The position numbers and the translations under genes are program-made. The notes under the pieces are model-generated. The model was not told where the DNA came from and did not search any database. It saw nothing but the letters and a program-made list of their open reading frames with translations. From the NCBI GenBank assembly GCA_032718475.1, contig JAUCBJ010006806.1:1-64000 (forward strand): a stretch of 64,000 nucleotides of DNA, given 5' to 3'. The first letter of the stretch is position 1, and each line of letters begins with the position of its first letter. Source of the DNA: Nemertoderma westbladi (taxonomy: Eukaryota; Animalia; Xenacoelomorpha). This document shows positions 21,445 through 57,918 of this stretch, piece by piece.

Positions 21445-21579
21445 CATCAGAAGCGTCGAAAAAAGATCGAAGGAGCAACGTTGTAAGCGAGGTAGAAAGG
21501 CTAAAGAAGAACAGAGAGGAACGCCGAGCCAAACAGGCTGAGGCGCTGATACAGAAACAGCAGCTAATAGAGGAAGCGG
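21445..21579 (+). CDS. KIF2A: Kinesin-13 coding exon 5 (neck helix)
   Basis: ttttacag|CA; SEASKKDRRSNVVSEVERLKKNREERRAKQAEALIQKQQLIEEA is the kinesin-13 neck (R.S.VV.EVE.L...RE.RR). Donor GCGG|GTGAGT, phase 1. Confidence 0.92.
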
Positions 21580-24500
21580 GTGAGTGAGGGGCTGATACAG
21601 AAACAGCAGCTAATAGAGGAAGCGGGTGAGTGAGGGGCTGATACAGAAACAGCAGCTAATAGAGGAAGCGGGTGAGTGAGGGGCTGATACAGAAACAGCA
21701 GCTAATAGAGGAAGCGGGTGAGTGAGGGGCTGATACAGAAACAGCAGCTAATAGAGGAAGCGGGTGAGTGAGGGGCTGATACAGAAACAGCAGCTAATAG
21801 AGGAAGCGGGTGAGTGAGGGGCTGATACAGAAACAGCAGCTAATAGAGGAAGCGGGCGAGTGAGGGGCTGATACAGAAACAGCAGCTAATAGAGGAAGCG
21901 GGTGAGTGAGGGGCTGATACAGAAACAGCAGCTAATAGAGGAAGCGGGTGAGTGAGGGGCTGATACAGAAACAGCAGCTAATAGAGGAAGCGGGTGAGTG
22001 AGGGGCTGATACAGAAACAACAGCTAATAGAGGAAGCGGGTGAGTGAGGGGCTGATACAGAAACAGCAGCTAATAGAGGAAGCGGGTGAGTGAGGGGCTG
22101 ATACAGAAACAGCAGCTAATAGAGGAAGCGGGTGAGTGAGGGGCTGATACAGAAAGAGCAGCTGATAAAGGAAGCGGGTGAGTGAGGGGCTGATACAGAA
22201 ACAGCAGCTAATAGAGGAAGCGGGTGAGTGAGGGGCTGATACAGAAACAGCAGCTAATAGAGGAAGCGGGTGAGTGAGGGGCTGATACAGAAAGAGCAGC
22301 TGATAAAGGAAGCGGGTGAGTGAGGGGCTGATACAGAAACAGCAGCTAATGGAGGAAGCGGGTGAGTGAGGGGCTGATACAGAAACAGCAGCTAATAGAG
22401 GAAGCGGGTGAGTGAGGGGCTGATACAGAAACAGCAGCTAATAGAGGAAGCGGGTGAGTGAGGGGCTGATACAGAAAGAGCAGCTAATAGAGGAAGCGGG
22501 TGAGTGAGGGGCTGATACAGAAACAGCAGCTAATAGAGGAAGCGGGTGAGTGAGGGGCTGATACAGAAAGAGCAGCTGATAAAGGAAGCGGGTGAGTGAG
22601 GGGCTGATACAGAAACAGCAGCTAATGGAGGAAGCGGGTGAGTGAGGGGCTGATACAGAAACAGCAGCTAATAGAGGAAGCGGGTGAGTGAGGGGCTGAT
22701 ACAGAAACAGCAGCTGATAGAGGAAGCGGGTGAGTGAGGGGCTGATACAGAAAGAGCAGCTGATAAAGGAAGCGGGTGAGTGAGGGGCTGATATAGAAAG
22801 AGCAGCTGATAGAGGAAGCGGGTGAGTGAGAGGCTGATACAGAAACAGCAGCTAATAGAGGAAGCGGGTGAGTGAGGGGCTGATACAGAAACAGCAGCTA
22901 ATAGAGGAAGCGGGTGAGTGAGGGGCTGATACAGAAACAGCAGCTAATAGAGGAAGCGGGTGAGTGAGGGGCTGATACAGAAACAGCAGCTAATAGAGGA
23001 AGCGGGTGAGTGAGAGGCTGATACAGAAACAGCAGCTAATAGAGGAAGCGGGTGAGTGAGGGGCTGATACAGAAACAGCAGCTAATAGAGGAAGCGGGTG
23101 AGTGAGGGGCTGATACAGAAACATCAGCTAATAGAGGAAGCGGGTGAGTGAGGGGCTGATACAGAAACAGCAGCTAATGGAGGAAGCGGGTGAGTGAGGG
23201 GCTGATACAGAAAGAGCAGCTAATAGAGGAAGCGGGTGAGTGAGGGGCTGATACAGAAAGAGCAGCTAATAGAGGAAGCGGGTGAGAGAGGGGCTGATAC
23301 AGAAACATCAGCTAATAGAGGAAGCGGGTGAGTGAGGGGCTGATACAGAAACAGCAGCTAATAGAGGAAGCGGCTGAGTGAGGGGCTGATACAGAAACAG
23401 CAGCTAATAGAGGAAGCGGGTGAGTGAGGGGCTGATACAGAAACAGCAGCTGATAGAGGAAGCGGGTGAGTGAGGGGCTGATACAGAAACAGCAGCTAAT
23501 AGAGGAAGCGGGTGAGTGAGGGGCTGATACAGAAACAGCAGCTAATAGAGGAAGCGGGTGAGTGAGGGGCTGATACAGAAAGAGCAGCTGATAGAGGAAT
23601 CGGGTGAGTGAGGGGCTGATACATAAACAGCAGCTAATAGAGGAAGCAGGTGAGTGAGGGGCTGATACAGAAACAGCAGCTAATAGAGGAAGCGGGTGAG
23701 TGAGGGGCTGATACAGAAAGAGCAGCTGATAGAGGAAGCGGGTGAGTGAGGGGCTGATACAGAAACAGCAGCTAATAGAGGAAGCGGGTGAGTGAGGGGC
23801 TGATACAATAGAGAAAGCGGATGAGTGAGGGGCTGATACAGAAACAGCAACTAATAGAGGAAGCGGGTGAGTGAGAGGCTGATACAGAAACAGCAGCTAA
23901 TAGAGGAAGCGGGTGAGTGAGGGGCTGATACAGAAACAGCAGCTAATAGAGGAAGCGGGTGAGTGAGGGGCTGATACAGAAACAGCAGCTAATAGAGGAA
24001 GCGGGTGAGTGAGGGGCTGATACAGAAAGAGCAGCTGATAGAGGAAGCGGGTGAGTGAGGGGCTGATACAGAAACAGCAGCTAATAGAGGAAGCGGGTGA
24101 GTGAGGGGCTGATACAGAAACAGCAGCTAATAGAGGAAGCGGGTGAGTGAGGGGCTGATACAGAAACAGCAACTAATAGAGGAAGCGGGTGAGTGAGAGG
24201 CTGATACAGAAACAGCAGCTAATAGAGGAAGCGGGTGAGTGAGGGGCTGATACAGAAACAGCAGCTAATACAGGAAGCGGGTGAAGAGGGGCTGATACAG
24301 AAACAGCAGCTAATAGAGGAAGCGGGTGAGTGAGGGGCTGATACAGAAACAGCAGCTAATAGAGGAAGCGGGTGAGTGAGGGGCTGATACAGAAACAGCA
24401 GCTAATAGAGGAAGCGGGTGAGTGAGAGGCTGATACAGAAACAACAGCTAATAGAGGAAGCGGGTGAGTGAGGGGCTGATACAGAAACAGCAACTAATAG

Positions 24501-57500: not shown

Positions 57501-57672
57501 CCACGGAGCACTGCAAGGACATCAGGTAAGTTTAATTAACCACGGGAGCACTGCTAGGACCTCTGGTAAGTTTAATTAACCACGGGAGCACTGCTCGGAA
57601 CTCTGGTAAGTTTAATTAACCACGGGAGCACTGCTCGGAACTCTGGTAAGTTTAATTAACCACGGGAGCACT
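48546..57672 (+). repeat. 39-40-bp tandem array (~230 units) derived from the exon 9 3' end plus splice donor
   Basis: Unit tttaattaaccacg(g)gagcactgc(a/t)agga(c/a)ctc(a/t)G|GTAAG; the first unit encodes [11 protein letters not shown]. Confidence 0.98.
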
Positions 57673-57918
57673 ATATAGTACTATAGAGTATTATACATTA
57701 TTATAGAGCACTATAGAGTATGGTAAGCAAAAAAATACTTGGCACATGATAGGGTTGTGTGTAATACACATTTTTTGCATTTTACTGTTTCTTTGTTTAC
57801 TTTGGTTACTGTTACTGTATCAACAGAATTTGTAAAATTAACATCCAAAGTTATCGAATTCCGTAACTCACAGAGACACCCCTTTTCAACCTATACAAAA
57901 CACTTACAAACAATAGGT

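Follow-up and report, generated by a model that had tools for sequence, protein, structure and literature searches.

The window analysed here, a stretch of 64,000 nucleotides from Nemertoderma westbladi (assembly GCA_032718475.1, contig JAUCBJ010006806.1, positions 1 to 64,000 of the forward strand), covers the 5' two-thirds of a gene on the + strand that is predicted from its sequence to encode a kinesin-13 (KIF2/MCAK-like). Introns 5 and 9 of this gene each open with a long tandem array, and in both cases the repeat unit is made up of the 3' end of the preceding coding exon followed by the first five bases of the intron. Together the two arrays comprise 18.4 + 9.1 = 27.5 kb. They are best explained, with a probability of about 0.75, as two boundary-spanning ('mirage'-type) minisatellites, which would have arisen by chance tandem duplication, been tolerated through use of the first donor and grown by ordinary minisatellite expansion. 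Three characteristics of such minisatellites were found in both arrays: short head-to-tail units, a first unit that contains authentic coding exon and a real splice site, and repetition of that signal downstream. Use of the authentic site in normal mRNA is seen in spliced contigs for exon 9, and for exon 5 the data are consistent with it. The arrays are not a new kind of element, as the class is known; their copy numbers (~398 + 231) and their pairing in one gene are unusual.

The first array starts inside exon 5 and occupies intron 5 together with a retrotransposon and a short unique remainder (a slash marks a splice junction):
21429..21579, + strand: exon 5, coding; acceptor ttttag/GATTC, open reading frame (ORF) continuing into exon 6
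21539..37547, + strand: array 1, proximal part; 348 units of 46 bp (41 exon nt + GTGAG)
37548..42516, - strand: copia-type long terminal repeat (LTR) retrotransposon; 4,969 bp, inserted in an array 1 unit
42517..44887, + strand: array 1, distal part; ~50 units, the final one complete
44888..45003, + strand: unique remainder of intron 5; 116 nt, acceptor AG at 45002-45003

Tandem Repeats Finder (TRF) reported the 46-bp array at 21539-37547, where its 138-bp row gave 115.9 copies (~348 units, 95 % matches), and the 46-bp unit again at 42518-44887 with 51.4 copies. Segmentation into 348 + 50 units amounts to ~398 copies and 18.4 kb. Unit 1 (21539-21584) consists of 41 exon nt (21539-21579) and GTGAG, and the following unit opens with T. 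The exon ends at 21579 as ...GAGGAAGCGG/GTGAGT, and the authentic donor is CGG/GTGAGT. The sequence GTGAGT is rebuilt at 365 of the 398 junctions (a separate count by regular expression gave 320 + 47), and CGG/GTGAGT stands at 305 of the 348 junctions of the proximal part. The final full unit stops ...GTGAG at 44887, and the next base is A instead of T (pseudo-donor GTGAGA). Since this final unit is complete and A follows it, the unit really ends at intron position +5, and the ancestral donor was probably GTGAGA. The ancestral intron 5 was probably ~121 nt long (the 116 unique nt plus GTGAG); intron 5 now measures 23.4 kb, roughly 190-fold over this presumed ancestor. Microhomology, in the form of the TGAG found both at exon position -41 and at intron +2 to +5, was considered as the seed of array 1 and rejected, because slippage between the two TGAG copies would yield a 42-nt unit with one junction TGAG while the observed unit has 46 nt with TGAGTGAG.

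Array 1 is one array split by the retrotransposon, not two arrays. The LTRs (37548-37757 and 42308-42516) are identical at 209/209 positions and have TG...CA ends, and the element is flanked by a 5-bp target duplication, GATAG, at 37543-37547 and 42517-42521. Removal of the retrotransposon with one GATAG copy restores a normal array 1 unit. The identical LTRs and the clean target duplication indicate that the insertion is recent and went into an already existing array. The domain order noted alongside the copia-type label is an integrase core (PF00665) upstream of RVT_2 (PF07727). The element has two long ORFs in the same frame with one stop between them, antisense to the host gene.

The second array shows the same architecture at the exon 9 donor, with an unrelated 39-bp array further downstream:
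48430..48580, + strand: exon 9; end ...ACCTCAG/GTAAGT, authentic donor CAG/GTAAGT
48546..57672, + strand: array 2; 231 units of 40 or 39 bp (35 exon nt + GTAAG), 9.1 kb
57673..57727, + strand: degenerate end of array 2; AT-rich 10-bp mini-repeat, then GGTAAG, then C (GGTAAG+C = 57722-57728)
57728..59810, + strand: rest of intron 9; includes the unrelated 39-bp array (58374-58745) and a C24 run (59741-59764)

TRF reported a 40-bp array at 48545-57672 with 230.6 copies and 91 % matches. Unit 1 (48546-48585) is made up of 35 exon nt (48546-48580) and GTAAG, with a 1-nt ambiguity at a G. There are 207 occurrences of GTAAGT in the 231 units, so that across both arrays ~90 % of the unit junctions rebuild GTGAGT or GTAAGT. 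CTG/GTAAGT is found at 167/231 junctions and the exon-type CAG/GTAAGT at just 39/231; the exon-type CAG is concentrated in the first 8 units, and the derived CTG occupies the interior. The GGTAAG+C at the degenerate end is probably the last unit joined to the ancestral intron 9 donor, GTAAGC. In both arrays the duplication thus appears to have placed T at +6 where the ancestral base was non-consensus (A in array 1, C in array 2). With T at donor position -2 in 72 % of its units, array 2 has mostly pseudo-donors that are one base poorer in U1 pairing than the authentic site, a change that could be due to drift or to mild selection. The C24 run lies ~46 nt 5' of the exon 10 acceptor and may act as an unusual polypyrimidine tract.

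A preliminary description of this DNA had given the units as the last 41 nt of exon 5 plus GTGAG and the last 35 nt of exon 9 plus GTAAG, which holds to the base. Its register, with the unit ending at +5 and the next one opening with T, is fixed by the final unit of array 1 with its GTGAG followed by A. The junction counts (365/398 in array 1; 207 GTAAGT in the 231 units of array 2) bear out its statement that nearly every junction rebuilds GTRAGT, and the two arrays indeed begin in coding sequence, unit 1 being the exon end in both, and extend together over the ~27 kb that it had estimated (27.5 kb).

The identity of the host gene follows from several lines of comparison. A search of the exon 6 peptide against a protein collection that does not include this species returned as top match a kinesin-like protein with 69 % identity, and the matches listed carry PF00225 (kinesin motor domain). 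Judged by exon identities, the sequence looks nearer to molluscs than to echinoderms. Four homologues aligned colinearly in tblastn over exon 1 and exons 5-10, and translation of exons 5-9 gives a single continuous open frame. The kinesin-13 reading frame is intact and colinear across exons 5-10. Exons 2-4 were predicted solely from ORFs and splice motifs, and the numbers given to exons 5 and 9 hold with them. The further exons that bear on splicing of the two arrays are:
45004..45262, + strand: exon 6; GT..AG joints in spliced contigs, tblastn, translation
47252..47379, + strand: exon 7; GT..AG joints in spliced contigs, tblastn, translation
48015..48184, + strand: exon 8; GT..AG joints in spliced contigs, tblastn, translation
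59811..59962, + strand: exon 10; GTACGACTTCGG...CAG/GTAAGA; tblastn, sequence and contig loose end

Any later donor in either array breaks the reading frame, because the units of 46 and 40 nt shift it and stops follow immediately. Read-through past the exon 5 donor gives an ORF (21429..21587) ending ...EEAGE and a stop (GT GAG TGA), and read-through past the exon 9 donor gives an ORF (48430..48594) ending ...TSGKFN and a stop (GT AAG TTT AAT TAA). Transcript contigs were available from two runs, X4 and X5, which stem from two studies, are not on record as RNA and behave as RNA in that their contigs are spliced. Exons 6, 7, 8 and 9 are joined at GT..AG in a 2942-nt contig of X4 and in an 809-nt contig of X5. 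Both contain a single copy of the array 2 unit, contiguous with unique exon 9, followed by letters equal to exon 10; the unaligned end after 48583 is identical to exon 10 sequence from 59814 on. As one array 2 unit is followed directly by exon 10, the first donor of array 2, out of ~230, is used in the assembled transcripts. At the other array, transcript contigs show exon 6 joined to ...GAGGAAGCGG. Comparison of 40 letters with the consensus unit shows exactly one other letter, which fits the exon copy, since this copy departs from the consensus by a single base, the C at unit position 6. These data are consistent with use of the first donor at exon 5 and do not amount to proof. Contigs of the arrays themselves number none in X4 and one, from array 1, in X5, where absence of cover is not evidence.

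A recursive splice site (ratchet point) is a juxtaposed (Y)n-AG/GTAAGT with a polypyrimidine tract. It could be proposed that array 2 is a chain of such sites, its CAG/GTAAGT units acting as acceptors and then as regenerated donors in stepwise removal of the 11-kb intron; the 39 units of exon type, and a branch-point-like TTAAC ~26 nt upstream of the AG in each unit, would agree with this. However, the 167 units with CTG/GTAAGT are left without the AG, the 20 nt upstream of the AG are not pyrimidine-rich, and array 1 has GG before its GT and no AG at all, which makes stepwise removal hardly credible.

The arrays grew from within, by duplication of ~1.9-kb blocks, and not by repeated copying at the true donor. 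A run of 35 identical units in a row and another of 25 are repeated at lags of 1937 and 1846 bp, and the blocks around those runs extend to 1978 and 1380 bp with 99.85 % and 99.86 % identity, respectively. With those of 828 and 598 bp, these duplicated blocks show 99.7-99.9 % identity at lags of 1846-2067 bp, and additional blocks recur at lags of 1930, 2067 and 11199 bp. A test for higher-order structure found multi-unit blocks of 598-1978 bp, more alike than adjacent single units are, at lags of ~40-45 units, irregularly spaced and with no strict higher-order period. Furthermore, the exon copy reads C at unit position 6, and 301 of the 323 canonical-length units in the proximal part, among them units adjoining the exon, carry a G there that is specific to the array. 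This exon-type C is present in 22/323 proximal units, one of them the exon copy itself, and in 1/45 distal units. The presence of the array-specific G in nearly all units indicates that new units were copied from array units and not from the exon end. The true donor could have had a part in no more than the two seeding events. Growth of this kind is the ordinary turnover of a minisatellite or satellite, in which the exon copy and the edges of the arrays have escaped homogenisation, as in the mirages of amphioxus.

That the arrays exist outside this assembly was seen in Logan contigs from two DNA runs, X1 (2023) and X2 (2019), which come from different samples and studies. Contigs of both runs cover 44858-45527, from the end of array 1 into unique intron 5, and at exon 9 the contigs of both runs break off after entering the repeated part by ~29 nt, which is what the edge of a repeat should produce. 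In the array bins, summed depth, which is not a copy number, was 8804 versus 14.9 and 13633 versus 11.5 in the flanks for X1, and 1560 versus 23.6 and 3412 versus 24.7 for X2. The high summed depth is a sign that many copies of the arrays exist. The ratio of array to flank depth (bins 44796-44924 and 48537-48664) is several-fold greater in X1 than in X2; these ratios are not copy numbers and give a weak hint that array copy number differs between individuals. Compared to the window, the contigs of X4 and X5 carry C>G at 48101 (exon 8) and G>A at 48518 (exon 9), the latter also present in X2; these differences are probably allelic, between individuals.

The arrays might be real while their lengths and the near-identical ~1.9-kb blocks were inflated or rearranged by the assembler. 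Blocks with 99.85-100 % identity at regular lags are what such an error could leave behind, the Logan contigs are short with none spanning an array, and a misassembled mirage is described for the amphioxus draft in the sections drawn on of Ebner et al. (PMC3087553). Against inflation speak the array depth in X1, which exceeds that of the flanks by a factor in the hundreds and agrees in order of magnitude with the assembled copy numbers, the clean insertion of the retrotransposon with its target duplication and array units on both sides, and the variant units, which are ordered and not collapsed. An assembler artefact of this kind is regarded as improbable.

The sequence of events proposed for each array has three steps. 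A stretch made up of the exon 3' end and the first five intron bases would have been duplicated once in tandem, by chance. The duplication would then have been tolerated, with splicing still choosing the first donor. This choice may be made by position, through 5'-to-3' scanning or exon definition as in human F7, since the pseudo-donors of array 1 carry the same 9-mer as the authentic site. Finally, unequal exchange or replication slippage would have expanded the array internally. The occurrence of two such arrays in one gene would be a coincidence in a minisatellite-dense genome. The arrays do not fit intron gain by tandem AGGT duplication (Rogers model, cited in PMC3087553), in which a new intron arises within former exon sequence: downstream of each array, unique intron sequence leads on to an acceptor of its own, and the arrays therefore enlarge existing introns.

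How far chance suffices was estimated for the window. It holds 14 TRF loci at a score of at least 100, and these, ~19 exon boundaries and the ~31.6 kb left outside the extra units and the transposon were the inputs. Boundary-spanning arrays expected by chance number 0.19-0.38, with P(>=2) = 0.015-0.056 for this window alone, so that two boundary-spanning arrays in this repeat-rich window are mildly improbable. No stray copies of the units were found outside the arrays: a search of the window on both strands, allowing up to 5 substitutions, gave 0 matches to either unit core. The other exon boundaries in 44888-48545 and 57673-64000 showed no tandem duplication at a TRF score of at least 30.

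Several observations weigh against an origin by chance and ordinary turnover with exclusive use of the first donor. The breakpoint of each seed is at intron +5, and no lower offset would preserve GTRAG; each seed also swaps a non-consensus +6 for T. If offsets were uniform over the unit, an offset of 5 or less in both would have a chance of ~0.01, by arithmetic done post hoc. In size, moreover, the two exon-derived arrays rank first and second among the 14 TRF loci, for which the chance is 1 in 91 if size is independent of origin, and the bias of a reader toward big arrays does not apply to a size ranking inside the window. On the side of splicing, the transcript alignment at exon 5 began inside the array, with the upstream context outside it, and 22 array units share the exon's C; since contigs drop rare isoforms, minor use of pseudo-donors is possible. 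The array lengths come from one assembly, with no contig across either array. The shared +5 breakpoint is considered a real yet statistically weak coincidence, a mild oddity.

A mutational process anchored at 5' splice sites, in which arrays are seeded where the U1 footprint ends, through breakage, pausing or slippage linked to R-loops, would explain why both stop at +5. It would agree with the position of both 3' breakpoints (+5; +4/+5 in array 2), with junction microhomology of 0-1 nt and with two events in one gene. However, growth after seeding was internal to the arrays, and the +5 offset is a matter of two data points chosen post hoc. To our knowledge, no mutational mechanism of this kind is known, and none that anchors duplications at 5' splice sites was found in the literature searched on the topic. 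Related arrays also have other offsets and sides: in the sections of the articles drawn on, the F7 unit is given with 33 intron nt and the LMNB2 and PDGF units with 81-100 bp (PMC1557585), and amphioxus has arrays on the acceptor side (PMC3087553). A donor-anchored process is regarded as unlikely. The preliminary description had left the choice between such a process and a selective filter in which only donor-spanning duplications leave the coding sequence intact. The filter fits the data; the anchored process is disfavoured by internal growth, by the other offsets in related arrays and by what chance can account for.

It has also been considered that the arrays were kept or enlarged as useful U1-binding sites, which would protect the inflated intron by telescripting, or would tune expression via pseudo-donors and nonsense-mediated decay. 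This would be in line with the consensus GTRAGT retained in ~90 % of the units, with the rank of the two arrays as the largest in the window and with the absence of AATAAA from the units, as read in the unit sequences. Yet the donor positions do not visibly exceed many others in conservation, the donor 9-mer in the proximal part of array 1 varying by 0-3 % per position like most other positions, and recent block amplification by itself predicts high uniformity. An ancestral intron 5 of probably ~121 nt needed no protection, and the several-fold differences in depth between X1 and X2, although weak, fit neutral behaviour of a variable number of tandem repeats (VNTR). A selected function in U1 binding therefore seems quite unlikely.

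In a combined form of these ideas, introns would be inflated preferentially through donor-derived arrays. Their seeds would end within the U1 footprint, T at +6 would strengthen the authentic donor, and the U1-coated, acceptor-free units could then multiply to hundreds of copies, unseen by splicing and shielded from premature cleavage. If true, this would explain why the donor arrays outgrew the other minisatellites of the same gene. It is put forward here as a doubtful speculation, and chance duplication followed by ordinary expansion is retained as the explanation.

The remainder of the window is rich in repeats as well. Upstream of the start codon (ATG near 9081), positions 1-8000 are GC-richer (up to 0.56), show a strong pyrimidine skew of the + strand (GC skew to -0.25, AT skew to -0.30) and contain three further minisatellites, at 5444, 6414 and 7255. 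Intron 4 contains at 17716-18236 two adjoining G-rich 42-bp minisatellites, the repeats of which give rise to long ORFs on both strands. A 28-bp x 51 array with 97 % matches, unrelated to any exon, lies in intron 10 (60597-62025); its minus strand is open for 376-485 codons in three frames, with no sign of coding. Fragments of a reverse transcriptase of the long interspersed nuclear element type are present on the minus strand at 18762-19781, where RVT_1 was found, and at 63246-63824, the peptide of which resembles that of the former.

On its own, the pair of arrays is an extreme example of a known oddity and not a new mechanism. It documents growth of an intron from the end of the gene's own exon, with a datable retrotransposon insertion inside. 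Array 1 furthermore represents a natural stress test of 5' splice-site choice, with ~350 sites that have the identical CGG/GTGAGT in an identical 40-nt exonic context. As 9-mer and context are the same, site strength and local enhancers cannot discriminate between these sites, and position alone can. More broadly, the case raises the question of an excess of boundary-spanning arrays and of clustering among their breakpoints; a genome-wide survey of such arrays was not found in the literature searched on the topic.

The closest relative described is the VNTR in intron 7 of human F7, with a 37-bp unit in 5-9 copies, the first monomer of which spans the exon-intron boundary with 4 exon and 33 intron nt (Borensztajn et al. 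2006, PMC1557585). According to the sections of that article drawn on here, the most upstream donor alone is used physiologically, and 5'-to-3' scanning was shown with 50 constructs (PMC1557585). F7 and the present arrays have in common a first monomer across the boundary and an authentic donor followed by identical pseudo-donors. They differ in copy number (5-9 versus ~398 and 231) and in unit composition (4 + 33 versus 41 + 5 and 35 + 5 nt). F7 is moreover a vertebrate gene with one array, in which splicing was tested by mutagenesis, whereas here the evidence consists of transcript contigs. If use of the first site is exclusive here too, the scanning or exon-definition rule of F7 would extend from 5-9 to hundreds of copies, and to an invertebrate. 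The same arrangement is reported in the same sections for IFI6 (6-16; 25 pseudo-sites), CBS (15-20), LMNB2 (100 bp x 10-15) and PDGF (81 bp x 16-18); in LMNB2 and PDGF the authentic donor alone is used, while in IFI6 and CBS the first two pseudo-sites are used too (PMC1557585). Repetition of a splice donor in the following intron is thus shared with these genes, but their arrays have 10-25 copies, with units of 31-100 bp where stated, in contrast to the hundreds of copies found here.

Among invertebrates, the mirages of amphioxus were described in Adh3, the globin genes BflGb6 and BflGb9, troponin C and PGBD5 (Ebner et al. 2010, PMC3087553; Pavelitz et al. 2013, PMC3902484). In the parts of these articles on which the comparison draws, they occur at both 5' and 3' boundaries and leave splicing undisturbed. 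Tandem duplications of exon-intron boundaries with undisturbed splicing are common to amphioxus and Nemertoderma. The amphioxus mirages are unstable in length and show concerted evolution in the interior, the edges being left out of homogenisation, as are the edges of array 2. They differ from the present arrays in having few copies (3-6 in BflGb6), units of 10-160 bp and a location on donor as well as acceptor sides; here there are hundreds of copies, on donors only.

The gigantic introns of Y-linked genes in Drosophila consist of simple satellites, which are not known to derive from the gene's own exon or donor. As far as the sections drawn on of Fingerhut et al. (2019, PMC6508621) describe them, they share with the present case the many-fold enlargement of introns of expressed genes by tandem repeats. 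The Drosophila introns are megabase-sized (PMC6508621), whereas intron 5 of the Nemertoderma kinesin-13 gene has grown from a probable ~121 nt to 23.4 kb out of the end of its own exon.

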